Origin: a virus
Direction: 5' to 3' (one strand)
IMG/VR virus record: IMGVR_UViG_3300011271_000005
Span: 1 to 57,460 of that record
DNA length: 57,460 nt
Below are positions 18,833-56,459 of this stretch, in pieces; the first letter of the stretch is position 1; the number at the start of each line of letters is the position of its first letter. The notes under the pieces were generated by a model. That model searched no databases. It was not told the origin of the DNA and saw only the letters and a list, made by a program, of their open reading frames with translations. Made by a program: the position numbers and the translations under genes.

Positions 18833-21436
18833 ATGATTAAAGCCATTTTTAAAACCTTTTTACTATCATTGACGATTATCTCGCAAGTTCATTTTGCTTA
18901 TGCGCAAACGGCTAGCATACTTCCTCCTGCAAAGACAACTTTTTTTGATTCTAATGGAAATCCTTTAACATCTGGAACTGTAGAAAGTTACATTCCATCG
19001 ACTACTACTCACAAAACAACTTGGCAAGATGCTGCTGAAACTATTCCTAATTTAAATCCTCTTACATTAGATGCTGCTGGAAGAACTTTACTTCTAGGTT
19101 CTGGCTCATATCGCCAAGTTGTTAAAGATAGAGATGGTAATTTAATTTGGGATCAAGTTACATCATCAACTGGAAGTGGGAGTGGTGGAGGTTCGACTGC
19201 TACAGGTGATGGCGATCTTGTGGGCACAATTAAGCCTTGGGCTGGTATTAGTGCTCCAAATCAATATATGTTTACTTATGGACAAACATTAAATAGAATT
19301 ACGTTTTCTGCTTTATTTAACGCGATCACTTCTACACAAGCTGTATTTTGTACTTCTGGTAATCCAACATTAACAGGATTAAGCGACACTACTAATTTTT
19401 GGATTGGTATGTCAGTAGAAACCTCTTGTGTTCCTGCTGGTTTTACTACTATTATTTCAAAAACATCTTCTTCTGTTACATTAGCTGTAAATGCAAACAC
19501 TACAGTAAATACTAGTATTATATTTTTTCCTTGGGGGAATGGAAATCATTCTACTACTTTTACATTACCAGATTTTAGAGGATTGATTCCTGTTGGTAAT
19601 AATATTATGGGTGGTGTTGCTAGTAGTAATATTAATGATACTTATTTTGGTTCTCAGAGTGCTAGTTCTGCTGGTGGTCAAGGTGGTAGTTCGAGTGCTA
19701 CATTGCTATTAGGAAATCTTCCTAATAGCGCCTTAGTTATTTCAGATACAAGAGTGTGGCGAACTTTAGCGAATAATGGTGCCGGTAATAATGGAACAGG
19801 GCTTGTTAATACCAATACATCAGCATCCGGTACTAATTATAACGCAGTGAGTCAAAACAGCGGAGGAGGTATTAATCTTCCAATTGAAATTGGAAGTGGA
19901 TCGATTAGTGGAACATTGGGAGGTTCATCGACAGCATTCGGTATTATTCAGCCATCTAAAACTATTAATTATATTATCAAAGTTACACCAGATGCTAATT
20001 CTGCTACTGCTTCTGGTGTAACAGATTTAAATGGAATGACGGGTAGTGTTGCTTGTGGCCAAGGATTAACTTGTACAGGTAATACAATTGCTGTTACTAT
20101 AGTTGGTGGAGTGACTTCTTTAGGAGGTCAAACTGGAGTTTTAACTTGCGGAGTAGGTATAACTTGTTCTGGTTCTAGTATCAGTGCTACGGTTTCTAGT
20201 GTTTTTACTCGTACAGGTGCTATTGTAGCTGCGTCTGGTGATTATAATGCTGGTCAAATAACCTATACTCCAGTCGGAACAGGCGGAGTAGCTACAACGG
20301 ACAAGGCGATTCTAGATCGAACTGTCTGGGCCAATGACTACGGTGCGGCCTGTAATGGTGCGGGTAATGACGCCACTGCGTTTCAAAATGCAATTAACCA
20401 AGGCCAGACCGCTGGCCTATCTGTTCGCTGGACCGGCGTTTGTCTCATTAACTCAGGTCTATCGATAACGACATCTATTGATTTTGGCGGGCCGGGAAAC
20501 GGTGGGGCCTTTGGAATACAGCCTAGACTAGTCGTTACTTCTGCTAGTGTACTTGGTATTACAATCACTACTAATTCAACCGCCCCAGTCTATCTTCATG
20601 ACTTTGGGGTAACATACTCCCCCGCAGCTAATGCCGGAGTTGCCGCGATCACTGTCACTGGCACTGCGGCCAACGAAAATTCGGGCTCTAAATTTGAGCG
20701 CCTAACGTTGAACGGTGGCATTGCCATCGGTATCGACTTTGTAAAAGCTTCTCTGTGGACGCTTTCAAATTCACAAATTGTTTCTTCTAATTCTGGTGGC
20801 ACCGCCATTCGCGTCGCCAATGGCAACAACGGCGATTCCGGCGATAGCACTATCTATAGCAGCACTATCCAGCAGACTGGTGGGGCAGGTATTGGAATTG
20901 CTTGGAACAGTTCTGGTGGACTGCGGATCGAGAATAACAAAATCCTTGGTTCCACCATGGCCAATGGCATTTCGATTAATCTTGCCAACGGAGTTAACAC
21001 ATCCGACATCTTCATTGTTGGGAATAGCATCGAAGGACTGACTACTTCAGGAATTGGAGTCAATCTAACCAGAGCAGGTACGACCGGTGGATTAAACCAC
21101 GTAATCATCGGCCATAATGAACTTGGTGGCGGTCAAGTTTGCGTCTCGGTTCCGACAGATGTTAATGGTACTTGGATCAACAATATAAACATCACAGGAA
21201 ATTCTTGCCAAGTTGTCAACTCTTCAAGCGCCGTTGGATTCAACATTGTCGCTGTTATTGGCGGGGCAGTGGTCATGAACAATTCTGTATGGGCAACTGG
21301 TGCTGGGACAAATCAAGTGGCGATCATGGGTGCCTTTGGTACTGCTGCTAACTGTGTGGAAGGCTACAACACGAAAATCGGTACGTTCGCGCCATCGACC
21401 AATAGCGGTACATGCACAACAGTAGCACCATTCTAG
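18833..21436 (+). CDS. Tail fibre / tailspike: N-terminal fibre motif, phage-tail-collar domain, C-terminal right-handed beta-helix (pectate-lyase-like)
   Basis: Motifs seen: FFDSNGNPLTSGTVESY...LDAAGR; collar motifs GTIKPWAG..P..Y.F.YGQTL...F.ALFNAI and FTLPDFRGLIPVG; three (V/T)xxLxGxTG linkers; DYGAACNGAGNDATAFQNAI and NNxI repeats. The N-terminus MIKAIFKTFLLSLTIISQVHFAYA resembles a signal peptide. Confidence 0.8.
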   Translation: MIKAIFKTFLLSLTIISQVHFAYAQTASILPPAKTTFFDSNGNPLTSGTVESYIPSTTTHKTTWQDAAETIPNLNPLTLDAAGRTLLLGSGSYRQVVKDRDGNLIWDQVTSSTGSGSGGGSTATGDGDLVGTIKPWAGISAPNQYMFTYGQTLNRITFSALFNAITSTQAVFCTSGNPTLTGLSDTTNFWIGMSVETSCVPAGFTTIISKTSSSVTLAVNANTTVNTSIIFFPWGNGNHSTTFTLPDFRGLIPVGNNIMGGVASSNINDTYFGSQSASSAGGQGGSSSATLLLGNLPNSALVISDTRVWRTLANNGAGNNGTGLVNTNTSASGTNYNAVSQNSGGGINLPIEIGSGSISGTLGGSSTAFGIIQPSKTINYIIKVTPDANSATASGVTDLNGMTGSVACGQGLTCTGNTIAVTIVGGVTSLGGQTGVLTCGVGITCSGSSISATVSSVFTRTGAIVAASGDYNAGQITYTPVGTGGVATTDKAILDRTVWANDYGAACNGAGNDATAFQNAINQGQTAGLSVRWTGVCLINSGLSITTSIDFGGPGNGGAFGIQPRLVVTSASVLGITITTNSTAPVYLHDFGVTYSPAANAGVAAITVTGTAANENSGSKFERLTLNGGIAIGIDFVKASLWTLSNSQIVSSNSGGTAIRVANGNNGDSGDSTIYSSTIQQTGGAGIGIAWNSSGGLRIENNKILGSTMANGISINLANGVNTSDIFIVGNSIEGLTTSGIGVNLTRAGTTGGLNHVIIGHNELGGGQVCVSVPTDVNGTWINNINITGNSCQVVNSSSAVGFNIVAVIGGAVVMNNSVWATGAGTNQVAIMGAFGTAANCVEGYNTKIGTFAPSTNSGTCTTVAPF

Positions 21437-21449
21437 AAAGGAAAGTATC

Positions 21450-21578
21450 ATGTTTGTTATAACTGGAATTCTATTTGCGTTGCTGCTCATTGGGCGATTT
21501 TTTTATAAAGCTAAACAATATCGAGATGAGCGCATTTATCGAACTACGGTAACACGCATCACGAGAGCCGTTAAATGA
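21450..21578 (+). CDS. Small membrane protein (42 aa)
   Basis: SD aaagga. The translation MFVITGILFALLLIGRFFYKAK is one TM helix followed by a basic tail. Confidence 0.4.
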   Translation: MFVITGILFALLLIGRFFYKAKQYRDERIYRTTVTRITRAVK

Positions 21579-21602
21579 TGGATATTTAAAATTCGGTGCT
21601 TC

Positions 21603-21875
21603 ATGAAACTTGTTTGGATTATATTATTATTTTTTATTAATATTTTGATAATATTGGTTTTATTATTAATATTTAATCCAATACAATACGCTAATCTTGC
21701 TCAAACTGCTATTTTACAAGAATATGTAAATGTTTACTGCATTGATTCAGAAGAAGCGCATAAGAATAAAGTTAAATTTGCAGCACAAGGTGCGTTAATG
21801 TCTAGACTTACTATAGGAACTGGTTTAGGTTCCATCGCATTGTTAGAATACGCCAAATGTAAAATTTCACATTAG
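21603..21875 (+). CDS. Membrane protein (90 aa), holin/lysis-accessory candidate
   Basis: N-terminal TM helix WIILLFFINILIILVLLLIF. Confidence 0.45.
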   Translation: MKLVWIILLFFINILIILVLLLIFNPIQYANLAQTAILQEYVNVYCIDSEEAHKNKVKFAAQGALMSRLTIGTGLGSIALLEYAKCKISH

Positions 21876-21888
21876 AGGAATTTTTAAA

Positions 21889-22266
21889 ATGCCCACAATT
21901 ACGCCTCTTGGTTGGATTGGTATTATTATTTTATTTAATAGTACTCTTTTAGGTGGAGCTAGTCAACTTGGTGATTTAGCTTTAAGTCCTGTTATCGTAA
22001 AGGCTATTCTAGCAGTAGCTACATTAGGAAATGGTTTTCTCGGTGGATTGGTAACTATGTTTTCAACTTCTGCTAATATGGTTAAATCTATTGATCAGGG
22101 AACTATGGTTAAAGCTGTGCGCTCAATGCCCGGTATTGAAGATATTGTTGTAAATGCTAAAGCTACTCCTACCTTAGCTGCTATGGCTGTTGATCCTAGC
22201 GAACCTAAAATTAGTTCCATTGATAGCGATAAGTTTAAAATCCAAGCTATCGCTAAGAATGGTTAA
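21889..22266 (+). CDS. Multi-TM membrane protein (125 aa), holin candidate
   Basis: There are two to three hydrophobic segments (GWIGIIILFNSTLLGG, VIVKAILAVATLGNGFLGGLVTMF) followed by a hydrophilic tail. Confidence 0.45.
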   Translation: MPTITPLGWIGIIILFNSTLLGGASQLGDLALSPVIVKAILAVATLGNGFLGGLVTMFSTSANMVKSIDQGTMVKAVRSMPGIEDIVVNAKATPTLAAMAVDPSEPKISSIDSDKFKIQAIAKNG

Positions 22267-22271
22267 TTAAA

Positions 22272-22589
22272 GTGACAGATGTTACTCGTGTCGAGCGCAT
22301 ACCTGCAATCATGCAACAGCTTGAGCATTTAACAGCTAGCGTTCAAAGGCTGGAAGGCCTGATCGTGCGTGAGATTCAAGAATTGAAGTCCGAGCAAATT
22401 GCAGATTTGCGACGGCAAAATGAACGTTTAGCTGATGATCAGCGGCGTGCATGGGAAGCAATCAGAACACTTGAAAATAGAGGTAATCAATATTATGGTA
22501 GTATGAAAACGGCTCATACTATTACAGCTACAATAAGTGCATTAATTGGCGGTAGTATCGCAGCAGTGATAGCTAAATTCGTCCATTAA
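22272..22589 (+). CDS. Coiled-coil protein with a C-terminal TM anchor (105 aa)
   Basis: GTG start. It has heptad-like charged sequence and ends TISALIGGSIAAVIAKFVH. It is noticeably GC-richer (29/60 at 22321..22380). Confidence 0.45.
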   Translation: MTDVTRVERIPAIMQQLEHLTASVQRLEGLIVREIQELKSEQIADLRRQNERLADDQRRAWEAIRTLENRGNQYYGSMKTAHTITATISALIGGSIAAVIAKFVH

Positions 22590-22758
22590 GAATAATTGAA
22601 TATGAACTATCGCCAGCGCTTGCATCTATTTGTGTATTGATTCGTTCTTGTATTTCAATATCACTTATGTGCTTAGAATATTTTGGATCATTACTTGAAT
22701 AATAATCGCGTTGACCTTTCCAATATGGAATAGGCATATTAGTATTTTTCCGTTTCAT
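22573..22758 (-). CDS. Hypothetical protein (61 aa), last gene of the leftward operon
   Basis: Track ORF. It converges with 22272..22589 and overlaps it by 17 nt. Confidence 0.45.
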   Translation of the reverse strand: MKRKNTNMPIPYWKGQRDYYSSNDPKYSKHISDIEIQERINTQIDASAGDSSYSIILNGRI

Positions 22759-22942
22759 ATTTATCTTTTATATTAGCAAGAAAATATTTTCCAACGCCTT
22801 CAGCGTTTAACAATTCATTATAAGTATCTTTTGATACATCTTTATACTCGTACCAACAACCTTTACAGAATTTTAATTTGAGTAGCTTTTCAGCTTCATC
22901 ATATTCTATTTCGCTGATCATAGATGACTTAATTGTGGACAT
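22739..22942 (-). CDS. KTSC-domain-like protein
   Basis: ISEIEYDEAEKLLKLKF..G.WYEYKDVSKDTYNELLNAEGVGKYF matches the KTSC domain pattern. The start is taken at the MSTIK ATG. Confidence 0.55.
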   Translation of the reverse strand: MSTIKSSMISEIEYDEAEKLLKLKFCKGCWYEYKDVSKDTYNELLNAEGVGKYFLANIKDKYETEKY

Positions 22943-23126
22943 ATTATGATCCAATATAAAATATCATAAGTATAAACATTCCTCCAATACAAAAACCAAT
23001 AAATAGCCAACCGATATTTTCTTTTGTCATTTTATCATTTCCTCGTTAAAAATTCAAATATAATACACCAAATACTTTTAATGATCGGTGATTCTAAATG
23101 CTCAGGTTGCCATTTTTGATATTTTC

Positions 23127-23318: not shown

Positions 23319-23340
23319 ATTTATTTATTTCCTTATTAAA

Positions 23341-23368
23341 TTGAACGGGACTTCTATATCCCGTTCAA
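23341..23368 (-). terminator. Hairpin downstream of the OMP gene
   Basis: Perfect 10-bp arms ttgaacggga/tcccgttcaa with an 8-nt loop. It has only a short T-run. Confidence 0.45.
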
Positions 23369-23391
23369 TAATATTTGTCAATAGCTATATT

Positions 23392-24051
23392 TTAGAAGTG
23401 TCTATTGAGTTCCAGTAATACCAGACTAGTTGCGGGCACGCCCTGCTGTGCTGGCGCGTAAAGGTAGCTTACGTCGGAAGTCCAGCCCGCTGCGATCACA
23501 GTTTCCGCACCAACGCCATTTACCCACATATTAACGCCTTTGCGTTGCATACCACCGAACCGAAAATAAGGTGTCGTGGCTGCGAAGAAATTGGCAGGAA
23601 CGACCAATGGAATAGGTGACTGTGATGGTGTTACTACCGCTGACTGTGTCGATGGGAAGAAGTTATATCCTAACTTGATGGTCTCCAAGCCTACAAACTT
23701 AGAACCATGCTGGTTGACAACTGGCAAAGTCGCGCTGGTATTGGTGATGAATTCATAGCCTAAGCTCAAATCAAGAGCAGCGAACCAATTGCCGTTCCAG
23801 AACTGATATCCACCCTGCGCTTTAAGAATGCCACCAGCAGCAAATACCGAACCATTAATGCCACTACCAACAATATCAGCATTACTGCCATCACCAGCGA
23901 CACCAAAACCTGCATACCAACCGCTACAGCTACCAGCAGCACACGAACTTGCTGAAAGATATGGCGTGGCTTTAACAGGAAGATCGGCGGCTAAAGCAGG
24001 TGAAGCAAGTAAGGAAAGAGCTCCAATTAACGCGATAAACAGCTTTTTCAT
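23392..24051 (-). CDS. Outer-membrane beta-barrel protein (Omp25/Omp31/RopB-like or Lom/Ail-like moron)
   Basis: Signal peptide MKKLFIALIGALSLLASPALA/ADLPVKA. It shows alternating aromatic/Gly beta-strand patterns (GWYAGFGVAG, GGYQFWNG, LSLGYEF, IKLGYNFF). The C-terminal residue is Phe (LELNRHF). Strong SD aggag. GC-rich island. Confidence 0.75.
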   Translation of the reverse strand: MKKLFIALIGALSLLASPALAADLPVKATPYLSASSCAAGSCSGWYAGFGVAGDGSNADIVGSGINGSVFAAGGILKAQGGYQFWNGNWFAALDLSLGYEFITNTSATLPVVNQHGSKFVGLETIKLGYNFFPSTQSAVVTPSQSPIPLVVPANFFAATTPYFRFGGMQRKGVNMWVNGVGAETVIAAGWTSDVSYLYAPAQQGVPATSLVLLELNRHF

Positions 24052-24138
24052 ATTTTAAACTCCTATTAAGGGAATTGTTAGCTTATGATAGAATGGATTG
24101 ATTGAAAACATACCCACAATAATTTAGGTTGAGTGTTG

Positions 24139-26073
24139 CTAAAAGAACACGATTTGCTCCGCTTTCTTATAATATCCGATATCCGTTAATATTCCCTTAG
24201 TCTTATTTATATAATATTCATAATCAATTAAATCTTCTGGAAATTCATTAGGTAAATCTTGTAATGGCATAGCTCCGTCTGTATCTGGTACTTTGTTTCC
24301 TGATAAAATATAATTAATAGTTCCATAACATTTTTTATAATAAGCAAACCGCACTACTTTTCCGAGATAGTTTCCGTCCTTATGTGCTCCACCTTTTACA
24401 TTTCTAATCACTACAAATCGTGTAATATCACAACAATTTTGTATGGTTTGTTCGATCGAGATTCCTGATGCAAGAAAATAAGTAATTGCATCAGAACAAA
24501 TAAGCATATTTGGATTATTGTCAAGTTGCGTGCCACTCTGACTTCCTTTTTCGCTAAAAGGTCCCTTTATCTTCACTTCACCATCATTCTTTACAGCGAA
24601 GTATGCATTTACGTCCCTTGCATAATATTTCGTATATTCAGCATCTTCTAATACAAATCCTGTCATTTTTTCCCAATATTTAACCCAATATTTTAATTTT
24701 TCTTCATTTTCTTCTTTATAATAGACAACCAATCCGTCTGTGTTAGCTGATATAATTTCCATTCCTTGACAAGTTAACATTTCAGCAAGCATAAGAATTA
24801 ATAATTGACCTGTTAAATTCATATGAACAGTATTCCAAGGTGAATACATTTTAGACCATGGATCGGACCATTTGCCAGATACACCATTCAAGAAAATCTT
24901 TAATCCTTTATCTCTAGTGAATAGCTTTAATCTTTTTGCATCTTCTCTATCAAATTTAAATTTCTTATAGACAGTTAAAAAGTTTGGTCCCATTGCAATC
25001 GGCATTAATTCTAGATTGATGATGGCGTTAGGATAATAGCTTCTAACATCAATATCTTTTATCTTCCATCCATCTTTAGCTTCATATGCTTTGCATTTAT
25101 CTTTTGAATGTAAACCACCAATACCTAAATTATAATAGTTTGCTCCTATTTGTGCAGGTTTTTCTAATTCTTTTGGTGAAGCTATTCTTCCATCATGATC
25201 GATTTTAAAATTTATCCGCTTGACTTTTTCTAATAGCTTTTGCATTTGCGAAGTTGCAAATCTGATATATTGTGGGCATCGATATTTAAATGTTGTTCCT
25301 ATTTCTATTTCAGGACGTTTGACATATTTTCCATTTAATTTTGATACTTCTTGAGCAATAACCGCTTCTGCCATTTGAGCATCAGACTTGCTCATAAGGT
25401 CTAGATTATATTCGATAGAGATAGATTCTCTTAATTGAAGTCTCTCTTTACAAAATCTAAATATTTGATCAGTTACATCTAAATCATTACAATTATATTC
25501 TTGAACAATTTTTATCTGTTCATTGCTTAGTGACTGATCATCAGGAAATGGTAAGTCCTGAATACGTGGTGAATGTAACCTAGCTCCATAAAGTTTCAAT
25601 GAACCTTTTAACGGGCATACATTAAAAAGGTCTATATGTTGTCTTGGTTGAAGTTTATAACATTTGAAATTAAAATCTTTTTCTACCTCTTCTTTTCGTT
25701 TTCCATATCTTATTAAAGCATCAGCAATATCTTTTAAAAATGCTGGATCACGATTTATATAACTAGCCCATAATATAACAAGATCAAAAGTGATAGAGTT
25801 AAATCCCACAGATCGGTAAGAATTAAGAATCCAACTAAGCATGTAAGGATTAAAATCGTTGTCAAGACGGATATAATTATTTGATTGAACATGTTTAAAT
25901 CCAGCTAAATAATAATTTGGAAAAATTTCAATATCTAGAATAATATCATCACCAGCATGTGAACGAATTTCATTTTCAGTCATATATTTTCTAGGGAGAT
26001 ATTCGCGCGGAATATATGGCTTTAATTGAATGCCTTTGCCCACAATTATTTGGTTATCTGAATTTAGGAGCAT
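24139..26073 (-). CDS. DNA polymerase, family B with 3'-5' exonuclease domain
   Basis: ExoI is DIEIFPN, ExoII is NSITFDLVIL and ExoIII is YNCNDLDVTD. Pol motif A is DVRSYYPNAI, motif B is KIFLNGVSGKW and motif C is NTDGLVV. Confidence 0.85.
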   Translation of the reverse strand: MLLNSDNQIIVGKGIQLKPYIPREYLPRKYMTENEIRSHAGDDIILDIEIFPNYYLAGFKHVQSNNYIRLDNDFNPYMLSWILNSYRSVGFNSITFDLVILWASYINRDPAFLKDIADALIRYGKRKEEVEKDFNFKCYKLQPRQHIDLFNVCPLKGSLKLYGARLHSPRIQDLPFPDDQSLSNEQIKIVQEYNCNDLDVTDQIFRFCKERLQLRESISIEYNLDLMSKSDAQMAEAVIAQEVSKLNGKYVKRPEIEIGTTFKYRCPQYIRFATSQMQKLLEKVKRINFKIDHDGRIASPKELEKPAQIGANYYNLGIGGLHSKDKCKAYEAKDGWKIKDIDVRSYYPNAIINLELMPIAMGPNFLTVYKKFKFDREDAKRLKLFTRDKGLKIFLNGVSGKWSDPWSKMYSPWNTVHMNLTGQLLILMLAEMLTCQGMEIISANTDGLVVYYKEENEEKLKYWVKYWEKMTGFVLEDAEYTKYYARDVNAYFAVKNDGEVKIKGPFSEKGSQSGTQLDNNPNMLICSDAITYFLASGISIEQTIQNCCDITRFVVIRNVKGGAHKDGNYLGKVVRFAYYKKCYGTINYILSGNKVPDTDGAMPLQDLPNEFPEDLIDYEYYINKTKGILTDIGYYKKAEQIVFF

Positions 26074-26349
26074 TTAATCTTCTTCATAACTAATACGTAA
26101 TACTTCAGATACTAACTCAATCATTTGTTGTTTAATAGTACGCAATTCATCAGCCATTTCATAACATTCGCGTTCCTCTGGTTTTGGACCGGGGCGAATT
26201 ATTTGATTGATAGTCGTATCTATGCATACTGTTACAATTTTATTAGCTAACTTATTTCTAGCTTTTGTTCGCGCACTTTTAATTGATGCCTCACGAAGCT
26301 TTTGTTGTTCTTCAGATATATAATATGGAGACCCACGACTAAAACCCAT
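26074..26349 (-). CDS. Hypothetical protein (91 aa)
   Basis: Track ORF that abuts the PolB start. Confidence 0.5.
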   Translation of the reverse strand: MGFSRGSPYYISEEQQKLREASIKSARTKARNKLANKIVTVCIDTTINQIIRPGPKPEERECYEMADELRTIKQQMIELVSEVLRISYEED

Positions 26350-26352
26350 TTC

Positions 26353-27333: not shown

Positions 27334-27334
27334 G

Positions 27335-47768: not shown

Positions 47769-47852
47769 GCTCTCATGGTGGAACGGGTAGACACTAGAGA
47801 CTTAAAATCTCTTGCTTATAGCGTACAGGTTCGAATCCTGTTGAGAGCACCA
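47769..47852 (+). tRNA. tRNA-Leu (anticodon UAA), type II with long variable arm, CCA encoded
   Basis: Hand-folded. The acceptor stem is gctctca/tgagagc. The D stem is 3 bp with a GG loop. The anticodon arm is agaga-ctTAAaa-tctct. The variable arm is tgcttatagcgt. The T arm is acagg-ttcgaat-cctgt, followed by A-CCA. Confidence 0.85.
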
Positions 47853-48226: not shown

Positions 48227-48234
48227 GCTATGAT
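48206..48234 (+). promoter_or_regulatory. Promoter nested in the terminator, aimed at the TerS-like gene
   Basis: TTGAAT lies in the hairpin loop. The 17-nt spacer includes the 3' arm. TATGAT ends 6 nt before ATG 48241. Confidence 0.45.
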
Positions 48235-48240
48235 CGTAAA

Positions 48241-48864: not shown

Positions 48865-48894
48865 TATTTTTGATTAACCCATGGAGCAAAAGAT

Positions 48895-50385
48895 ATGCGA
48901 AAGAAACTTGGTATTGCAGTATTAGCAATTATTGCTAGTGCTAGTGTTGCATATGCTGCTGGCGTATGGAACGGACTTCCGATTGTTGGTGATCCCGGTA
49001 ACACGGTTTGTCTTGATTTTGGTAGCACTCCTGCTACTACGCCGGGTAACTGTAACCAGTTTAGTCCTGCTGGTCCTACTGGTTTGACTGGTAACGAGCT
49101 TATTCCTACTGATACTGGCCAGCAGAATCCAGCTACGGTGTATATCCCAGCATCGTTGCTTGGTAGTTCTGTCAATCGTTTGATTGGTGGTGATATGACC
49201 ACTAATCTTAATCAGCGTCCTAGCACTGTTAAAGGTGTTGCTTCGCTAGCAACGTTATCTCCAACTGCTGCTGTGATTACGGCTGATCGTTGGTGGACAA
49301 TTGCTCCTGCTGCTGGTGTTACTGTTACTATCGATAGCACCGCTGCTACTGCTGTTATTCCGGGTTTAAGTAATACTAAAGCGCTTCGTTTAGCTCGTAC
49401 TACCTCTGGCGCTGCTGGTATTATGTGCATTGGTCAAACGCTTGATGCTGCTGCTTCTCAGCCGCTTATTGGTAATAACGCTGTATTTTCGTTCTGGGAA
49501 TCCAACGGCCCGGCTCAATCTGCAACTGCTGGTAACTTCACTGTAAACGTTGATTATACGTCTGCTGCTGATGCTGTTGCTACTCAGGCAACGCTTGGCT
49601 TTGCTGGTGCTAATGGTTCGCTATTTGCACTTGGTGATGTAGGCTTGCTTTCTGCTGGCCCTACTAATATGACTCGTGCTATTGCTGGCTTCTCTGCTGG
49701 TACCACTGGTACGGTAACTGCTGGTGTTGCAATGATTGCTGGCTCTACGACTTGGAAACGATATGGTGTTTATGCACCAATTCCGATTAACATTCCCGGT
49801 ACTACTATGCCAGTTACGAGTGTTAGTGTTTCGATTTGCTTCGCTCCGATTCTTACTACTGCTATTACTACGGATTGGATTGAAGTTAACGGTATGCAGT
49901 TAGAAGCTAAGCCTCCTGCTACCAGCGTTACAAATCCAATTGTTAGTGTTCTTGCTCCTAATGGTGTTACTGCTCCTAGTGCTTTTGAACGTCGCTCTGC
50001 GGCATTTGAACAGACATTATCACAGTACTATTGGTATTATAACTTTGAAAGTCAGGTTGCTGGTGGTATTACTACTGTTGCAAGCTGTACAGATGTCACT
50101 ACTGCTCTTGCTAATTGTTGGTTTCAATTTCCTGTTAACATGCGCATTGCTCCAAATGTAAAGTACACTGCTGGTTTTCAAGCATTTACTACAACTGCCT
50201 ATAGTGCTGTTGGCGCATGTACTGCTTTGGCTGCATCAACATCATATGTGACTGTTCCATCTACTACTGGTGCTTTAGCGGCTTGTACAGCTGCTTTAAC
50301 TCCTGCTGCTGGAACTGCTAATAGTTTAACCGCATTAGGCACCGCGTCCTCCACCGGTATTATTTCAGCCTCGGCGGAACCGTAG
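48895..50385 (+). CDS. Exported Ala/Thr/Gly-rich protein A (496 aa), unknown function
   Basis: SD ggag. Signal peptide MRKKLGIAVLAIIASASVAYA/AG. The mature part has few charged residues and contains LIGGDMTTNLNQRP...ITADRWW. Confidence 0.65.
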   Translation: MRKKLGIAVLAIIASASVAYAAGVWNGLPIVGDPGNTVCLDFGSTPATTPGNCNQFSPAGPTGLTGNELIPTDTGQQNPATVYIPASLLGSSVNRLIGGDMTTNLNQRPSTVKGVASLATLSPTAAVITADRWWTIAPAAGVTVTIDSTAATAVIPGLSNTKALRLARTTSGAAGIMCIGQTLDAAASQPLIGNNAVFSFWESNGPAQSATAGNFTVNVDYTSAADAVATQATLGFAGANGSLFALGDVGLLSAGPTNMTRAIAGFSAGTTGTVTAGVAMIAGSTTWKRYGVYAPIPINIPGTTMPVTSVSVSICFAPILTTAITTDWIEVNGMQLEAKPPATSVTNPIVSVLAPNGVTAPSAFERRSAAFEQTLSQYYWYYNFESQVAGGITTVASCTDVTTALANCWFQFPVNMRIAPNVKYTAGFQAFTTTAYSAVGACTALAASTSYVTVPSTTGALAACTAALTPAAGTANSLTALGTASSTGIISASAEP

Positions 50386-50416
50386 GATTTAATCTGAAAC
50401 AGAAAGGATTAAACCT

Positions 50417-50839
50417 ATGCCCTTAACTCTTCCGAGTAAACAAGTCAGACAATACACCACTTCTAAACAGTTAATTGGCGGTGATGATTTTAACGGAATC
50501 GTCGCTCAATTAAATTCATCAGCGGTTGGTATCACTGCTGGTGTTGGTGGTGGTTCTGCTAATGCTGTTGCACTAGCTAATGCTTTTAATACTATATCAA
50601 CGGTCGCTAGTGCCAATGATAGTGTAAAACTTCCAAAAGGTTTTGCTGGTTTGGAAGTCAGTATTGCCAATCAAGCCGCAGCTAACTCACTTCAAGTATT
50701 TACTTCTAGTAAAGGCCTTATCAATAATACTGATGGTGTCGCTACTGGAGTAGCTTTAGCTGCTAGTCAAACATCATATACATTATATTCGTGTTTTAGA
50801 ATAGATGCTACTAATGGTGAAATTTGGTTATCTAAGTAA
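50417..50839 (+). CDS. Cassette protein B (140 aa), no signal peptide
   Basis: SD aaagga. The protein is Ala/Gly/Ser-rich. A terminator follows. Confidence 0.6.
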   Translation: MPLTLPSKQVRQYTTSKQLIGGDDFNGIVAQLNSSAVGITAGVGGGSANAVALANAFNTISTVASANDSVKLPKGFAGLEVSIANQAAANSLQVFTSSKGLINNTDGVATGVALAASQTSYTLYSCFRIDATNGEIWLSK

Positions 50840-50853
50840 TTACTCCCCAGACT

Positions 50854-50884
50854 TGCCCCGGTGCAGAAGCCGGGGCATCTTTTT
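50854..50884 (+). terminator. Rho-independent terminator inside the cassette
   Basis: tgccccgg / ccggggca (8-bp stem, 8-nt loop) followed by TCTTTTT. It lies inside the N-terminal extension of track ORF 50805..51335, which argues against that extension. Confidence 0.75.
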
Positions 50885-50897
50885 AGGAATAAGTTTT

Positions 50898-51335
50898 ATG
50901 AAGAAATTATTAGTACATATTGTAGCATTATTTTTATTACTTTGCCCACAATTAGCTTTAGCTGCTAATGCATTTTTAGCTGATTCTAAAATTAAAATTA
51001 CATCTATTATTGTAGCTAATAACACGACTGCTGTTGTAATTAGCACTACACAATCAACTGTTTATTCAGTAGATGCTTTTAACAATGCTGGTGCGATTGC
51101 TTATGTAAAATTATATAACGCATCAACTGGTACTTGTGGTACTGGAACTCCGCAAGCTCGTTATATGATTCCATTTGGGGCTAGTTCCTCTGGTGGCGGA
51201 TTTAATGTTTCAAATATTAACGGCGATGCTTATGCTAATGGAATTGTGATGTGTATTACTACTGGTATAGCAGATACTGATATTGTTGCTCCGAGCTCTA
51301 ATGCTTATATTGTCAATATTCATTATAAGAATTAA
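50898..51335 (+). CDS. Exported protein C (145 aa)
   Basis: SD agga. Signal peptide MKKLLVHIVALFLLLCPQLALA/AN. It shares a TG(T/A)TCG(T/A)GT-containing segment with 51530..52216. Confidence 0.65.
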   Translation: MKKLLVHIVALFLLLCPQLALAANAFLADSKIKITSIIVANNTTAVVISTTQSTVYSVDAFNNAGAIAYVKLYNASTGTCGTGTPQARYMIPFGASSSGGGFNVSNINGDAYANGIVMCITTGIADTDIVAPSSNAYIVNIHYKN

Positions 51336-51518
51336 ATGAAAACCATTTTAACAGCCATTCTTATCATTAGTGTGGGCATAGTGACTGCTTACGCTGGTGG
51401 TTTTTCTATGCTTCATGTTGGCTCTGCTGATGGTAATGGTGGCGGAGGTGGTGGTTGTTCTAACCAACTTGATTTTTCACAAGCTTGTAATTCTCAGTAT
51501 ATACCGATTATTCATTAA
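51336..51518 (+). CDS. Exported Gly-rich peptide D (60 aa)
   Basis: The ATG abuts the upstream stop. Signal peptide MKTILTAILIISVGIVTAYA/GG. The roughly 40-aa mature part has GNGGGGGGC and two Cys. Confidence 0.5.
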   Translation: MKTILTAILIISVGIVTAYAGGFSMLHVGSADGNGGGGGGCSNQLDFSQACNSQYIPIIH

Positions 51519-51529
51519 AGGATAGCACA

Positions 51530-52216
51530 ATGTTTAAAAAGCTTCTGCTAACAATCGCATTCTCGTTAGTTGCGAGCAGTGCATTTGCGGTATGTGGTGC
51601 TATCCCATTAACTATTAAAGATGCTAGTGCAGCAACTCAAAACATATCATCTGCTACTGCTGCTGATGGTAATTGTAAAACTTATATAGACGCTGATACT
51701 GCTTCACAAATTCATACCGATTTGACTGCATCTATTCCTGCCGGTGCTAATTTAATTGGTAAAATTGGTATTGATCAGACTACACCGGGAACAACTAATG
51801 CTGTAGCAGTCACAGCTGGTACTAATCGCATTGGTTATGTTACTGATGATCCTTGTAGCAATGCTAGTTCGAAACTATATAAGCCCATTAGTATAACAAC
51901 CGCTACCACAACCAATATTATTACTGGGACTGCTGCAAAGATAATATATATTTGTCAGCTTTTTCTAACTTCTGCCGCAGCAGATAATATTGCGGTTATC
52001 GAAGGAACTACAGGAGCTACGTGTGGTGCTGGTACCGCAGGTGTAATAGGTGGCACAACTGCAACCAATGGGCTTAACTTTGCGGCCAATGGTGGCGTGT
52101 CAATTGGTAATGGCGCTGCTAATATTGCGCGAACAGCTACTGTCAATAATGATATTTGTTTGATTACGTCAGCGTCTACTCCGCTTGCTGGAGGTATCAC
52201 TTATGCTGTGCAATAA
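51530..52216 (+). CDS. Exported protein E (228 aa), apparent paralogue of C
   Basis: SD aagga. Signal peptide MFKKLLLTIAFSLVASSAFA/VC. The protein is Thr/Ala/Gly-rich. Confidence 0.65.
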   Translation: MFKKLLLTIAFSLVASSAFAVCGAIPLTIKDASAATQNISSATAADGNCKTYIDADTASQIHTDLTASIPAGANLIGKIGIDQTTPGTTNAVAVTAGTNRIGYVTDDPCSNASSKLYKPISITTATTTNIITGTAAKIIYICQLFLTSAAADNIAVIEGTTGATCGAGTAGVIGGTTATNGLNFAANGGVSIGNGAANIARTATVNNDICLITSASTPLAGGITYAVQ

Positions 52217-52217
52217 A

Positions 52218-53144
52218 ATGAAAAGTCTTTTTATTGTTCTAATGCTATTTTTACTTCCAATATCGGCTGAAGCCGCAACTTGTTTTTGGGTCGGTGGTGT
52301 CGGTACTTGGAGTACGGCTAATGCTGCGTCATGGTCATCTTCTACTGGAGGTGCTGGGAGTACTTGTGCTGCGACTGGTGGTATTCCAAAGCAAGCGGCT
52401 GATACAGCTACGTTTGATGGAGCGTCTGGTGGTGGAACCGTTACTGTTGATACAACTATTAACGGTGTGACGCTCACTCAGATTACAATGGGTGCATTTA
52501 CAGGCACGCTTGATTTCAGCATTAATAATCCAAGTGTGACCATGGCGGTGATGTCTATAAGTGGAGCTGGCACACGGACTGTGAAGCTGGGAAGTGGTAC
52601 GTTCACGCTCACGTCGAATAATACCAGCAATATGTTCGATGCATCTACGATCACAGGATTAACCCTTACGGCCGGAACGTCCACAATAAATTTCGCTCCA
52701 TCTAGCGCACCCAATGGCTCATGGGGATTAGCGAGTGGTGGATTGAATGGCGCAAACGCACTCAACAATGTTACGTTTACATTTGGATCAAGCTCCGCAG
52801 TGCGAAATGCTTTCATTACTGGAAGCAACACGATTAACGTGCTGACTGTGGGAGCCAATGTTGCATTACAGCCTAATTCAAATACGACGCAAATTTTAAC
52901 CTCTCTTATAATCGGGGGTACTAGTTCTCTTCAGACGATGCTGGGAGGGGCAGCTTCAACGCCTGCGATCATTAGTATAGCGACAGGTACAATCAACTTA
53001 AGTTGGGCTGGAATTCGAGCTGTAACCTTCACAGGAGGGGCGACATTCATAGCGGCGAACTCTTTTGATCTAGGCAATAATAGCGGAATTACGATTACTG
53101 GACCTGCAGGTGGCGCTGGTGGTGGCCATATCATCGGCGGGTAA
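52218..53144 (+). CDS. Exported beta-helix-like protein F (308 aa)
   Basis: ATG 52218 lies 1 nt after the upstream stop. Signal peptide MKSLFIVLMLFLLPISAEA/AT. CFWVGGVGTWSTANAASW and repeated G-T-x-T-L-T strings resemble autotransporter-type beta strands. Confidence 0.6.
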   Translation: MKSLFIVLMLFLLPISAEAATCFWVGGVGTWSTANAASWSSSTGGAGSTCAATGGIPKQAADTATFDGASGGGTVTVDTTINGVTLTQITMGAFTGTLDFSINNPSVTMAVMSISGAGTRTVKLGSGTFTLTSNNTSNMFDASTITGLTLTAGTSTINFAPSSAPNGSWGLASGGLNGANALNNVTFTFGSSSAVRNAFITGSNTINVLTVGANVALQPNSNTTQILTSLIIGGTSSLQTMLGGAASTPAIISIATGTINLSWAGIRAVTFTGGATFIAANSFDLGNNSGITITGPAGGAGGGHIIGG

Positions 53145-53150
53145 AATACA

Positions 53151-56100
53151 GTGAAAATTTCTCGTCGAAGTTTTGTTCACGGTGCCTGTACAATTGCTGC
53201 AGTCTCATTAAGACCAAATCCTGTTGAAGCATGGTTTCATGGTATGCCTATCATATCGCCGGGCCATTCAGTTCTCAACGCGAACTTCGCTGCTGATCAG
53301 TATTTGAATATCGCCAAGGGATTCACCGTTTCTCTTTCTGGAACGATGACGCCAGCAAGTCTAAATGCGGATCAATATCCGACCGGGATTATCCCGAACA
53401 CCTATGGTGGGAACACCGGATCGAGCGGAATCGATCCATCGTATTTTGGGCACTATACGATCGCTTGGACTGGCGTATCGGCTTTCACGGTAGCCGGAAA
53501 GCCCGTCATCATTTACAATGGTGGCACTTTTGCGGGTTTGGGCGGCGCTTCTGGCGTCGTTCAAAACAATGTCACCATCGGAACGACAGCTAACCCAAGC
53601 GTTGAGTTGGCTGTTGGCGCGCTGATCACCAGCGTGACCACGAGCGGCGGCGGTCTTGTTCAGTTTGGAACGACGACTGGTTTCTGGGGCAACTTCGCTA
53701 CCGGCACGAATGTTAAACTTAATAATCTGACGGGCCTTCCGGCTGGCCCGAATGCCGATGGATCGTGGACGGCGACCAAGGTCGACAATCAGACCTTCAC
53801 ACTCAACGGCTCTGCGGCGTTCGCTGGATTGGTCAGCATCAACACCTCCGGGACGGTCGGAGTAAACACGGAGGCTATCGCCAGCGTCACACAATTCGCT
53901 TTCACTTGGAATCCAACGTTCTCCGCTGTAAATGTCACCCACAATTTCAGCAATTTCATCTTCTGCAACACTGCAAATCTGACTGACCTTAACGCCGGGT
54001 TGCAGCTTAGCCGTCCCTGCATTGCGACAATCAAAGCGGTCAACCCGCGCTATGTCCGCTTCATGGACGCGATGGCGACGCAGGGATTGGTTTCGAACTT
54101 CGCGAGCAAGGCTCCGAGCACCTCCATGGTATGGGGCGCTTTGAGATTTGATCCCACATATTATGGTGGCACGACCGCCGGATCGGCTGATGCCTATACC
54201 TGCTCGAACCCCTCCGCTTCCGGAGGCGGCGCCTATGTAGATGGCGAAACCGTCACAGTCTATGTGGACCGATCGAGCACGACGACCAGCCCGACACTCA
54301 ATGTAAGCGGGCGCGGCGCAGCGAAAATCTTTTCGCGATCGATGCAAAATCTGGTCATGAACATAACTAGTACGGGAGTCAAGAACGCCGCTCTGACCTC
54401 CATATCCGGCTCTGGGACCACAGCTACGGCGACGACCACGGCGCCACACGGATTGACCAACGGCGATCAGTTCGGGATGACGATCGCCGGAGTGACACCC
54501 AGCACCTTTAACGGAACGGTTCTCTGCACCGTCACGGGCGCAAGCACGTTTACCTATCCGAACACGACCAGCGGTGCGGCTTCGGTTGCGGGCAACTATT
54601 CGGTCAATACACGGATCGGTGACATCCTCACCTTCACGTTCACCAATGCCGATTTTGGAACTTATGCTCCGACATATATCGTACAGAGCACCGATCTCAG
54701 CATCGACACCCTTGGTGGACATATAGGCGGCAGTGTCGGTTCGCTTAACGCCGATCTCACCTTAACCGGCAGCGGAATATTTGTTCAGAACAGCGGCGGT
54801 GGATATCTTCCGGTCAATTGCAGGACTGCCACGACATGCGCATTTGGTGTTTCCGGATCGACAATTGAAGCATGCAGCCCCGGCACGATGTCGGGAATCA
54901 CCCAATCTGGAACAGTTGGCTTTCTGACCATCAACACCGCTGCCACCTTTATCTACAATACGCTTTTGGGCGGCTTCATCTTTATTGGCGTCGGCGGTGT
55001 CACCTGCGGCGTTCCGCTGGAATACATCTATGAGATATGCACCAGGGCGAATGCTGGAGCGTGGGTTTGCTTGAACGTTATTTACACTCAGGCTGCGACG
55101 GTCTCTCTCGGTGCAGCCATGGCAACAAATCTGCCGGGGCTTCCGGTGGTCTGCGAGTATAGTAACGAGGTCTGGAATTTCGGCGAATTCCCGGTTACTC
55201 AGTGCAACGGTCTTGCTGCATGCATTGGATTTGGGACTTCGGGCGGCGGCTACATGGATTTCTACGGTCTGCGCACGGCTCAATTGTTGCCCGCGTTCGC
55301 TTCAGGCTGGACCGGCACCGGAAGACCCATCAACACGACAGCGGCGGGTAGAGACCTTGAATTAGTAAATGCCATGACTCCGCTGGAAGGGAGCGGAGGC
55401 TTTACAGGTCAAATGGTGCCGCTGCGCTGGAACGGCGGATGTCTGTCGCCTACTCCGATTGTTGCCACGGGCTCTATCACCGCGACGACATTGACCATGG
55501 CCGTTTCCGCAGGAGCCGTACCCAGGTGCGGAATGCAGGTTACAGGATCGGGCGTGACCGCTGGAACTGTGATAACCAAGGTGGTCAGCGGTACACAATT
55601 CACGGTCAACAATTCGCAGTCCGTCGCCAGCACGACGATTACGATCACTAATCCGCTCTACTCCGCACTCAGCGGCCCCGGCGGCACGGCATCATCGACA
55701 GCGTACAATGCTTTTCCGACGCGCCCGATTGATCTGGTGGACGGGACGTCTTACGCAACCTATGTTCAAGGGGCGCTGGCAGCGAATAACGCCAGCTCAT
55801 GGACTGGCACGCAATCGTTCTACAATACCCTGTTTCAGGCCAGCGCGGACTATGCCAGTGGCATCCCGGCATCGATGGCGAGTGCCATTACGGCTTGGAG
55901 CAATGACATCAGGGATGGCACGAAGAACGGAATTCGCAGCAGTGCGGGGATGTCTTCTTTCCTCGGAGTGACGAATGCCGCCGGAGGCAATAACTTTCTT
56001 CCGGGATGGGAAGCCAAAGTCGCCGTCTATGATGGCGCAAGGCCGAGTGGAAAGACAAACCTGAGCGTCAGGTGTTACGAAGGGATGATTCCGCAACAAT

Positions 56101-56459
56101 CGATGTCCAATAGTGATGGCGGCGTTAACCTAACCACTAGCGTCACCGACATGACAAACAAATTCAATGGCAACGCTTGGGTTCTCTCTCCAACCTACGG
56201 AGCAAGCAACGACGCTGTAGCGTTGAACATGGTCACTCTTGCGCTGGCCTATAAGAATGATCCGCAACTTGCTGCTGATCAGTTATACTTTTGGAACCAA
56301 CAAAAGGCCATTCATGTAAATCGGCCATTCAGCGGCGGCCAATTCGGTATCGAGGGAGGTAGTTCTAGCACATGGGCACTTTATCCGGGTGGCTTGACGT
56401 CAACACCATGGCAAAACTTGACCGGGCAAGCGCAGTACAATGCATTGAATGTCAATTAA
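53151..56459 (+). CDS. Giant GC-rich protein G (1102 aa): twin-arginine-type signal, fibre-like middle, possible glycoside-hydrolase-like C-terminal region
   Basis: GTG start. MKISRRSFVHGACTIAAVSLRPNPVEA/W carries an SRRxF motif, an h-region and AxA. The fibre-like strings are TLNVSGRGAAKI and TAPHGLTNGDQFGMTIAGV..FNGT..TV...TFTY. The C-terminal region has VVCEYSNEVWNF (NE motif). Coherent codon usage is seen only in this frame. Confidence 0.7.
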   Translation: MKISRRSFVHGACTIAAVSLRPNPVEAWFHGMPIISPGHSVLNANFAADQYLNIAKGFTVSLSGTMTPASLNADQYPTGIIPNTYGGNTGSSGIDPSYFGHYTIAWTGVSAFTVAGKPVIIYNGGTFAGLGGASGVVQNNVTIGTTANPSVELAVGALITSVTTSGGGLVQFGTTTGFWGNFATGTNVKLNNLTGLPAGPNADGSWTATKVDNQTFTLNGSAAFAGLVSINTSGTVGVNTEAIASVTQFAFTWNPTFSAVNVTHNFSNFIFCNTANLTDLNAGLQLSRPCIATIKAVNPRYVRFMDAMATQGLVSNFASKAPSTSMVWGALRFDPTYYGGTTAGSADAYTCSNPSASGGGAYVDGETVTVYVDRSSTTTSPTLNVSGRGAAKIFSRSMQNLVMNITSTGVKNAALTSISGSGTTATATTTAPHGLTNGDQFGMTIAGVTPSTFNGTVLCTVTGASTFTYPNTTSGAASVAGNYSVNTRIGDILTFTFTNADFGTYAPTYIVQSTDLSIDTLGGHIGGSVGSLNADLTLTGSGIFVQNSGGGYLPVNCRTATTCAFGVSGSTIEACSPGTMSGITQSGTVGFLTINTAATFIYNTLLGGFIFIGVGGVTCGVPLEYIYEICTRANAGAWVCLNVIYTQAATVSLGAAMATNLPGLPVVCEYSNEVWNFGEFPVTQCNGLAACIGFGTSGGGYMDFYGLRTAQLLPAFASGWTGTGRPINTTAAGRDLELVNAMTPLEGSGGFTGQMVPLRWNGGCLSPTPIVATGSITATTLTMAVSAGAVPRCGMQVTGSGVTAGTVITKVVSGTQFTVNNSQSVASTTITITNPLYSALSGPGGTASSTAYNAFPTRPIDLVDGTSYATYVQGALAANNASSWTGTQSFYNTLFQASADYASGIPASMASAITAWSNDIRDGTKNGIRSSAGMSSFLGVTNAAGGNNFLPGWEAKVAVYDGARPSGKTNLSVRCYEGMIPQQSMSNSDGGVNLTTSVTDMTNKFNGNAWVLSPTYGASNDAVALNMVTLALAYKNDPQLAADQLYFWNQQKAIHVNRPFSGGQFGIEGGSSSTWALYPGGLTSTPWQNLTGQAQYNALNVN

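Follow-up and report, generated by a model that had tools for sequence, protein, structure and literature searches.

GC-rich host-interaction modules in an AT-rich podophage genome and their probable origin from co-occurring GC-rich phages

The genome of an uncultured P22-like podophage, held in IMG/VR virus record IMGVR_UViG_3300011271_000005 (57,460 nucleotides, analysed at full length and hereafter called the window), is AT-rich and is interrupted by four GC-rich islands, which cover the C-terminal part of the tailspike, the body of a gene for an outer-membrane protein (OMP) and two adjacent genes, F and G, upstream of the terminase. Most probably these islands are host-interaction modules recombined in from co-occurring phages of 51-63% GC. 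Three slots would have received them: the tailspike C-terminus, where a putative beta-helix module is fused in frame, at residues 447-460, to the conserved N-terminal half; the position where the late and replication operons converge, filled by the gene for the predicted outer-membrane beta-barrel; and a cargo position just upstream of the terminase, filled here by F, with a general secretory (Sec) signal, and G, with a twin-arginine translocation (Tat) signal. A capture from a GC-richer gene pool had been proposed in an original prediction made from the sequence of this genome; the proposal stands for the tailspike tip, the OMP and G, it is carried for F by composition only, and it falls for a fifth candidate, a coiled-coil gene. 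The verdict of transfer, and not of constraint or misassembly, appears largely right, and the mosaicism is of kinds known in phages. Three aspects set this case apart: how far the exchanging lineages differ in base composition, the re-seeding of the same three slots and a nucleotide-level view of allelic replacement; the gap makes grafts, breakpoints and relative ages readable in the exchange of modules among soil phages.

The phage is one of a family whose genomes measure about 57-60 kb and contain 35-44% GC. The N-terminal part of its tailspike is matched, with 46-75% identity, by more than 100 metagenomic proteins; contigs of 57-60 kb encode at least 19 of these, and five fetched tailspike-bearing loci have a GC content of 0.355-0.41; the shared N-terminal part and the low GC of its carriers thus mark a family of AT-rich phages. 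A sibling phage, recovered from other samples (L010/L011 and L020, GC 0.34-0.36), has the same layout, a jump in tailspike composition and the OMP gene included, and backbone DNA mostly 79-92% identical to that of the window. The portals of four further members (L017, L021, L023 and L025) are 65-69% identical to its own. Family regions upstream of the terminase were fetched with the terminase as query.

Delimitation of the islands by codon choice

The GC content of the window is 0.369 overall and 0.353 once the islands are subtracted. In windows of 300 nucleotides it reaches 0.46-0.51 at 20101-21300, 0.49-0.50 at 23401-24000 and 0.45-0.59 at 51901-56400, dropping to 0.27-0.38 directly outside these three stretches. 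The GC content of third codon positions (GC3) is 0.10-0.30 in backbone genes, 0.40-0.50 in the tailspike C-terminus (about 20198-21436), about 0.5 in the body of the OMP gene (23392-23850), 0.4-0.55 in the body of F (from about 52455) and 0.53-0.72 in G. In a scan of 1295 windows of 40 codons (median GC3 0.20), values stay at 0.40 or higher over long runs in four places only, 20261-21430, 23422-23841, 52455-53084 and 53211-56450, with single windows of G as high as 0.80. The switch of third positions from A/T to G/C, part of the original prediction, is thereby borne out, and four of the five islands listed there are recovered (tailspike C-terminus, OMP, body of F, and G).

The effect of amino acids was separated from codon choice by computing, for each gene, the GC content that backbone codon usage would give its protein sequence. 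Backbone genes remain within about +/-0.04 of this expectation; the excess is +0.140 in G, +0.078 in the OMP gene, +0.069 in F and +0.033 in the tailspike gene taken whole. G is the sharpest case, with a GC content of 0.546 and a GC3 of 0.60 vs 0.41 and 0.20 expected. Codon-usage correlations also set the islands apart from the backbone. G correlates with genes of GC-rich phages at r=0.89 and with the backbone at 0.28; for the resident tailspike part (GC3 0.08-0.28) the correlation with the backbone is 0.96; in F, codons 1-90 give 0.78 with the backbone and 0.22 with GC-rich phages, and the body gives 0.51 with each.

Some island edges shift under this treatment. Tailspike GC3 is 0.08-0.20 up to codon ~475 and 0.32-0.50 from there on. 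F has a GC3 of 0.38 overall, 0.25-0.30 in codons 21-100 and 0.30-0.55 afterwards, so that the F and G island, placed earlier from about 52250, rises in GC3 only from about 52455, the start of F being raised by amino-acid composition only. An OMP island bounded exactly by the start and stop codons holds for total GC but not for GC3, which is 0.42 overall and 0.20-0.33 in the first 60 codons, whose GC stems from an Ala/Gly-rich sequence. The three resident genes with Sec signals ahead of F lie in a block with a GC content at second codon positions (GC2) of 0.44-0.60 and a GC3 of 0.19-0.26; in 48895-50385, in 51530-52216 and at the start of F (GC2 0.56-0.60, GC3 0.22-0.26), which are rich in Gly, Ala, Thr and Ser, the raised GC comes from amino-acid composition and not from a codon switch.

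Such genes bring up the possibility of a constraint without transfer, in which GC would follow from the encoded content of Gly/Ala/Thr/Ser-rich secreted proteins or from an expression-linked codon bias. GC2 is indeed high (0.50-0.60) in all these genes, amino acids alone account for the GC of two of the resident genes and of the first 60 OMP codons, and the capsid gene has GC3 patches of up to 0.55. We nevertheless consider this account very unlikely, given the excess of G and the OMP gene over their amino-acid expectation, the way in which GC3 of OMP homologues tracks the carrier (0.27-0.42 in AT-rich phages, 0.53-0.88 in GC-rich ones) and the existence of family members with other tips or cargo and no islands, which implies that the islands follow modules and not positions or kinds of protein.

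The fifth candidate, the coiled-coil gene at 22272-22589, is vertically inherited backbone. Only its codons 1-50 reach a GC3 of about 0.45, in the manner of about a dozen short patches elsewhere in backbone genes; its codon usage correlates with the backbone at r=0.74, and its product is 91% identical to that of the sibling. A separate acquisition was ruled out by the weak GC3 patch together with the location of the gene inside a block (21885-22753) of 89% nucleotide identity to the sibling.

Table 1. Coordinates of the islands, their resident surroundings and other features of the window
Feature	Position	Strand	Remarks
P22-type portal	1777-4050
Capsid protein	8930-10174
Tailspike/fibre gene	18821-21436	+
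Tailspike, resident AT-rich part	18821-20197	+	Sec-type signal-like N-terminus, putative head-binding domain, Collar domain, linker repeats
Island 1, tailspike C-terminal module	20198-21436	+	GC3 0.32-0.50; grafted in frame at residues 447-460
Coiled-coil protein	22272-22589	+	C-terminal membrane anchor; backbone, not island
Palindromic hairpin	23340-23369	.	11-bp stem just downstream of the OMP stop, between convergent operons; terminator-like
Island 2, OMP body	23392-23821	-	GC-rich allele; GC3 ~0.48
OMP 5' part	23822-24051	-	24051-23902 resident AT-rich allele (signal peptide, first residues); crossover zone 23901-23822
Family-A DNA polymerase	24139-26073	-
Primase	34921-37224
tRNA-Leu (anticodon TAA) and CAT-anticodon tRNA	35797-35872 and 47769-47852
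Resident Sec-signal block	48895-52216	+	48895-50385, 50898-51335, 51530-52216; also 50417-50839, without signal
F, Sec-signal protein of 300 residues	52242-53144	+	island 3 from ~52455; 5' 70-90 codons AT-rich at synonymous sites
G, Tat-signal protein of 1102 residues	53151-56459	+	island 4, sharpest; codons 1-30 AT-rich at synonymous sites
G stretch differing between assemblies	56024-56270	+	compared with NCBI contig WNFG01000239.1
Large terminase gene, start	56531-57460	+	ATG at 56531 after AAGGAGG; runs across the window end

Homologues of the island modules on GC-rich phage DNA

The tailspike is composed of two parts with separate relatives. Family homologues align only to residues 5-446/457 (55-65% identity), and GC-rich proteins of 525-529 residues only to residues 447/458-870, from which the junction falls at about nucleotides 20160-20198, near the position of about 20230 claimed earlier. 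These GC-rich proteins (P0146, P0147 and P0149) are 70-74% identical to the tip at the amino-acid level and lie on contigs with a GC content of 0.53-0.55 (L013, 0.551; L057/L058, 0.53), so the earlier claim that the C-terminus came in frame from a GC-richer pool is supported, at 72-74% identity. About 100 family proteins of 574-1454 residues share only roughly residues 1-300 to 1-450, and P0146-P0150 share only residues 447-870; the N-terminus is thus found with different C-termini and the C-terminus with different N-termini, as a modular tailspike would have it. The motif SVFTRTGA at the junction was considered as a family-wide crossover site and rejected, being found only in proteins that carry this module.

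The resident half is close to the sibling at the nucleotide level (90% identity to L010 over 18852-19677). Pfam Collar matches residues 135-170, and residues 24-113 are 38-50% identical in tblastn to the N-termini of tailspikes or colanidases from Xanthomonas, Rhodoferax, Ralstonia and Pseudomonas phages, and the N-terminus is 32% identical to that of Shewanella phage X14; the domain is homologous to the head-binding domains of podophage tailspikes. In the tip, Pfam gave no domain. Its AlphaFold 2 model (mean pLDDT 59.5, about 80 for residues 60-330) has phage tailspikes, including CBA120 TSP2/3, phiAB6 and Sf6, as all of its top ten PDB matches, which are modest (E-values 2e-3 to 7e-3, probability 0.96-1.0, TM-scores 0.25-0.42); the tip models as a putative beta-helix with a depolymerase-like fold.

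The mature OMP is 86-88% identical to proteins P0022 and P0021, the former on a contig of GC 0.58, and the claim of an origin in a GC-richer pool is therefore upheld by its best homologues, which lie on GC-rich phage DNA. Among 13 carriers outside the family, with flanks of GC 0.51-0.63, the gene is only 0.025-0.049 higher in GC than these; the excess is 0.129 in the window and 0.078 in the sibling. The gene itself is a chimera of a resident 5' end and a foreign 3' part, with the crossover in a conserved stretch. Its first 150 nucleotides are 87% identical to the sibling and 54% to GC-rich L056; from nucleotide 231 onward the identity is 74% to L056 and 64% to the sibling; in columns 151-230, where the gene is most conserved, no version is clearly closer than the others. 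Since the 5' end of the resident gene was retained in the replacement, the OMP export signal stays AT-rich.

The protein begins with MKKLFIALIGALSLLASPALA followed by ADL and ends in LNRHF, with H217 and F218 invariant in 18 sequences. A C-terminal aromatic residue is usual in outer-membrane barrels, and the OMP is predicted to combine such a residue with a cleavable signal peptide. PF13505 (OMP_b-brl) scores it at 19.0 bits, under the cut-off of 28.7; a precomputed table assigns PF13505 to several of its homologues, for several of which the Joint Genome Institute (JGI) name is 'opacity protein-like surface antigen'. NCBIfam, PHROG and PADLOC returned no match to the OMP, nor did its profile against PDB sequences.

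These features of the barrel bear on another reading, namely that transfer ran in the opposite direction or that a module was captured directly from a GC-rich bacterial chromosome, for instance the OMP from an alphaproteobacterial host. The protein resembles the Omp25/Opa-like barrels of Proteobacteria, as the JGI name and the sub-threshold profile match indicate, and its signal ...ALAADLPVKA may resemble those of Hyphomicrobiales (Rhizobiales). All the same, we hold this reading to be quite improbable. There are more than 200 metagenomic homologues of the OMP, and every one that can be placed sits among phage genes; the gene fits its flanks in GC-rich carriers and not in AT-rich ones; and pattern scans of 185,579 species genomes (one each) retrieved nothing related to the OMP or to G. 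The analysis gave no support to an alphaproteobacterial host as the direct source of the OMP. Searches with tblastn of the OMP and of G against 50,697 phage records gave no match.

For G, the best non-self homologue is P0002, 63-64% identical over the full length (BLAST), encoded on a 15-kb contig with a GC content of 0.573 that carries an integrase (L002), the only contig on which one was seen. The P0002 gene (GC 0.549, GC3 0.589) practically equals the G of the window in composition. Other homologues, about 40% identical, lie on L003-L005 (GC 0.535-0.553) beside a pectate-lyase-like tailspike gene. With this full-length homologue on a GC-rich contig and the absence of G from four AT-rich relatives, the claimed origin in a GC-richer pool finds support here also. 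The situation that would have spoken for constraint, closest homologues in equally AT-rich phages with the same profile, was looked for and is not what is found, the carriers having a GC content of 0.51-0.63.

Residues E669, N672, E673, W675, N676 and Y976-E977-G978 of G are invariant in 16 sequences, and the NEVWN and YEG motifs resemble those of TIM-barrel glycosidases (clan GH-A), a tentative assignment to strands 4 and 7 being our own; G is probably a glycoside hydrolase (GH). Its full-length structural model (pLDDT 73, pTM 0.74) gave non-significant matches to GH51, GH5, GH39 and GH86 (E-values 0.2-1, TM-score <0.2), and neither Pfam nor its profile against PDB sequences produced a match. 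Overall, apart from sub-threshold matches, PHROGs, Pfam, NCBIfam and PADLOC assign none of F, G, the OMP and the tailspike tip to a family.

The start of F agrees with the call in the NCBI record. A homologue of F was not found in related AT-rich phages, no all-metagenome protein search having been made for it. A gene of 316 codons before the G homologue in L002 was tried as a counterpart and rejected, as it gave only low-complexity-like matches of 21-29% identity, and such matches are spread over several Thr/Ala/Gly-rich proteins. A foreign origin of F is what we infer from its composition.

The slot upstream of the terminase

The four relatives without F and G (L017, L021, L023 and L025) carry homologues of 48241, of the first 93 residues of 48895, of 50417 and of a small signal-bearing protein; 50417 and the 93-residue N-terminus of 48895 are kept in L017, L021, L022 and L023. 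From the 50417 homologue to the terminase there are 1.1 kb in L017 and L021 vs 5.7 kb in the window, where GC returns to 0.32-0.38 at the terminase gene, which forms the right edge of the slot. The position seems to attract genes whose products act at the cell surface. Other cargo in this slot includes a Tat-signal protein with BNR repeats (L023, 6460-8415; weak Pfam BNR match), a polytopic membrane protein with a sub-threshold match to Wzy_C, the O-antigen ligase family (L025, 7287-8417), and a GIY-YIG endonuclease (L017, 9390-9995). The cargo genes of these three loci form no GC island. A mobile element around F and G was considered and discarded, as no direct or inverted repeats flank the pair.

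Continuity of the assembly

Two further contigs represent the same phage: WNFG01000239.1, an NCBI metagenome contig of 57,227 bp, and one of 57,977 bp from ENA. The NCBI contig differs from the window in one part of G and is identical to it over the other 13 kb compared: positions 56024-56147 hold 12 mismatches, all at third codon positions, and the 113-115 nucleotides that follow (about 56156-56270) are absent from it, which cuts its G to 1004 residues. The difference suggests a second allele of G in the sample, or a local assembly switch; the ENA contig encodes the full-length G of 1102 residues.

An assembly chimera, in which reads of a GC-rich phage were joined to an AT-rich phage at shared sequence, would draw on this disagreement as a sign of a second allele, and on the presence in the sample of GC-rich relatives of the same modules, L058 and L010 coming from one JGI sample. 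It is nonetheless highly improbable as an account of the islands. Long open reading frames are kept across all junctions, and the contig closes on itself, its first 123 nucleotides (1-123) recurring at 57338-57460, by which the window is a circularly closed, permuted contig of a genome of about 57.3 kb. Diverged contigs from other samples (L010, L011 and L059) repeat the arrangement of tailspike and OMP, and diverged proteins that run across the tailspike junction come from independent samples (P0143, from two of them, P0144 and P0145). The tip and the OMP have an intermediate GC3 (0.42-0.48) and not a donor-like one, and the OMP crossover is graded, not abrupt. G lies between F and the terminase in both contigs compared at the DNA level, the window and the NCBI contig; for F and G, the comparison is among assemblies of the same phage.

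Recurrent replacement, direction and relative age

Replacement at these slots is recurrent and allelic, and not the outcome of a single capture. The tip of the window is 63% identical to that of the sibling vs 74% to the GC-rich versions, and the sibling tip likewise finds its best match (72%) among the GC-rich versions. The OMP of the window is 72% identical to that of the sibling, where the gene sits at the same place (L010 and L011); the best match of the sibling OMP, at 82%, is P0032 on family member L059. Modules of the sibling being less similar to those of the window than the GC-rich versions are, the modules must have been replaced repeatedly. Tailspike GC3 jumps at codon ~450 in L010 and jumps in L059 too, and L059 (GC 0.407) has, right after its tailspike, a signal-bearing gene for 394 residues (3537-4721) with a GC content of 0.566 and a GC3 of 0.605; import thus recurs across the family. 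L012 has another tailspike tip, a flat GC3 and no OMP. Within an AT-rich essential gene, moreover, a further mosaic boundary is observed: compared with the sibling, identity is 90% over the 5' part of the DNA polymerase (24942-26078) and 71% over its 3' part together with the OMP (23327-24913), which places the boundary inside the polymerase gene.

Recombination during co-infection, or with resident prophages, would have effected these exchanges, and would entail overlapping hosts. In the OMP the body of a resident gene, already adapted to AT-rich codon use, was replaced homologously while the 5' end stayed in place. The swaps would change receptor or glycan specificity and the surface of the infected cell. 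A direction from the GC-rich pool into the AT-rich family is indicated by the counts of carriers, by compositional fit and by a word of the backbone that is missing from the islands. This word, TGTGGGCA, occurs in 28 copies in the window vs 1.3 expected, on both strands (sites include 1087, 13230, 25271 and 51371), is usually preceded by A and then T or G, and is the third commonest 8-mer of the 37%-GC genome. Its reported absence from the islands is confirmed: none of the 28 copies lies there, about 3 being expected under uniformity as the islands make up 11% of the sequence (P about 0.04). It is found in 10/10 checked loci of the AT-rich family proper, at 1.3-6.1 per 10 kb (enriched loci include L010, L012, L017, L023, L025 and L059). 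Three more distant AT-rich terminase relatives have few copies or none, and the word occurs in 0/7 GC-rich loci checked.

After entry, AT-biased mutation pressure would erode GC3. G (0.60, equal to its nearest homologue) would then have come in last, the tailspike tip and the body of the OMP (0.42-0.48) earlier, and the sibling OMP (0.27) would be almost fully ameliorated.

Several points weigh against a transfer from GC-rich phages. The nearest homologues are only 63-88% identical, so that no actual donor is in hand, and F is without an identified homologue. A rise in GC3 need not mean transfer, since both ends of the capsid gene (8930-9139 and 9860-10129) reach 0.48-0.55 and the capsid gene of L012 likewise stands above its own backbone (0.41). 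The AT-rich 5' end of G could reflect a general selection for weakly structured gene starts; in the L002 homologue of G, too, GC3 is lowered at the start (0.37). Continuity at the F and G junctions depends on two contigs, that of the window and that from NCBI, whose raw data may be shared, and the 3' end of G differs between these two assemblies, leaving the local assembly uncertain. Finally, the scans of 185,579 species genomes, made with the OMP and G, gave no host.

Predicted export signals

A crude signal-peptide rule flags 7 of the 53 open reading frames, namely the tailspike, the OMP, 48895, 50898, 51530, F and G. All four islands are in these seven and none is in the other 46 (hypergeometric P ~1e-4), in agreement with the claim that the islands encode envelope-facing proteins. 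The export signals of F and G had been described as still encoded by AT-rich DNA, and this is what the codons show: GC3 is 0.17 in codons 1-30 of G, vs 0.57-0.61 in the rest, and 0.25-0.30 in codons 21-100 of F. The kept resident 5' end of the OMP has a plausible parallel in G. G begins with MKISRRSFVHGACTIAAVSLRPNPVEA followed by W; among 12 homologues whose N-termini are complete, 8 have the S-R-R-x-F motif and the other four are Sec-like there, and a Tat motif, a hydrophobic stretch and a small-x-small cleavage site make G a predicted Tat substrate.

The tailspike begins with a Sec-type signal-like peptide (18821-18910), ...KTFLLSLTIISQVHFAYA followed by QTASILPP. It is kept in most of 15 inspected family members (proteins P0143-P0208), and the carriers of the GC-rich module (P0146-P0150) also bear a signal, MKKLIFTLALCLVSTGAWA followed by QCNG. 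Unlike the window, its cultured relatives (Pseudomonas phage PAE2 and Shewanella phage X14) start at the equivalent of ILPP, without a signal. An exported virion protein would be unusual, and a predicted Sec signal on a tailspike would be more unusual than the islands themselves.

It is a tentative idea, and on balance a doubtful one, that the family shares hosts with GC-rich phages, in bacteria some 20 GC points richer, and routinely exports its host-interaction proteins. Tailspikes and glycanases would then accumulate in the periplasm, where they could strip the cell of its own receptors, and exported tailspikes would meet cytoplasmic capsids only after the holin opens the inner membrane. 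If true, the GC islands would be the visible trace of an exported 'surface toolkit' circulating among unrelated phages of one host; and if the export signals work, they would represent an unusual route for assembling or deploying virion-associated enzymes.

Comparison with known systems

Receptor-binding (fibre or tailspike) domains are exchanged as modules between unrelated phages, an example being the host-recognition modules of Alteromonas phages (PMC10579305). As in those phages, the tailspike of the window would consist of a conserved N-terminal attachment part and a swappable C-terminal beta-helix module, its tip is also found in otherwise unrelated phages, and the junction lies at the start of the module (residues 447-460). 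In contrast to the Alteromonas case, the exchanging populations are about 15-25 GC points apart, which is why the graft shows as a step in composition.

A bacterial counterpart to G may be seen in the glycan-modifying enzyme WceF of Pantoea stewartii (PMC7949094), which is tailspike-like and exported through Tat and so offers a precedent for the export of such proteins. G likewise is predicted to be a folded, glycan-active enzyme with a twin-arginine signal; WceF, however, has an architecture related to phage tailspikes, a beta-helix, whereas G is borne by a phage and its NE...E motif points to a TIM-barrel glycosidase.

The OMP and the cargo slot can be compared with morons. Among morons and lysogenic-conversion genes, outer-membrane proteins are represented by Lom and Bor of lambda. 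Like them, the OMP is an extra gene of deviant composition between conserved operons, absent from some relatives and predicted to act at the surface. Composition departs from the surroundings in the OMP (+0.129 over flanks) and in G (about +0.19 over the backbone), and absence from relatives is seen for F and G in L017, L021, L023 and L025 and for the OMP in L012. The OMP family is, however, unrelated in sequence to Lom/Ail as far as tested (no PHROG, NCBIfam or PADLOC match), and it is found in several types of phage, sometimes beside lysis genes.

The gradient in GC3 from G (0.60) through the tailspike tip (0.45) and the OMP (0.42) to the sibling OMP (0.27) is reminiscent of amelioration, a concept for horizontally acquired DNA that reportedly goes back to Lawrence and Ochman. 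Unlike the classic case, this is a phage genome with slots re-seeded repeatedly, and ages are not simply readable from it.

Hosts, relatives and remaining features of the genome

The shared modules suggest that the host ranges of AT-rich and GC-rich phages overlap, and a composition-based host prediction would conflict for this genome. Two tRNA genes bear on the same matter, a tRNA-Leu(UAA) and a CAU-anticodon tRNA, called Met, which we take by eye to resemble tRNA-Ile2. TTA makes up 55% of backbone Leu codons vs 6% in GC-rich phages, and ATA 30% of backbone Ile codons vs 11%. The two tRNAs and this codon bias are consistent with an AT-rich phage in a GC-richer host and are no proof of it. Portal and DNA polymerase have only distant cultured relatives, at no more than 44% identity (best for the portal, 44%), so that no host can be read from either. 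Megablast of 25 kb of the window against the 50,697 phage records found no match, and an IMG/VR scan with the ejection protein likewise found none.

A head-closure protein and the ejection protein are also encoded among the backbone genes, and Pfam Terminase_3 is recorded for the terminase of the NCBI contig. For the hairpin behind the OMP gene (23340-23369) and a promoter-like site ahead of it (24081-24052), the numbers of such sites equal those in shuffled sequence. Beside the lysis region, a membrane protein of 125 residues (21889-22266) has homologues in GC-rich phages that are 42-78% identical, one of them in L008 at 7545-7937. The OMP may be linked to a lysis cassette. In L007 (9073-10648) the order is lysozyme, homologue of the 125-residue protein, OMP, and in L059 (6499-7621) this homologue is followed directly by the OMP.

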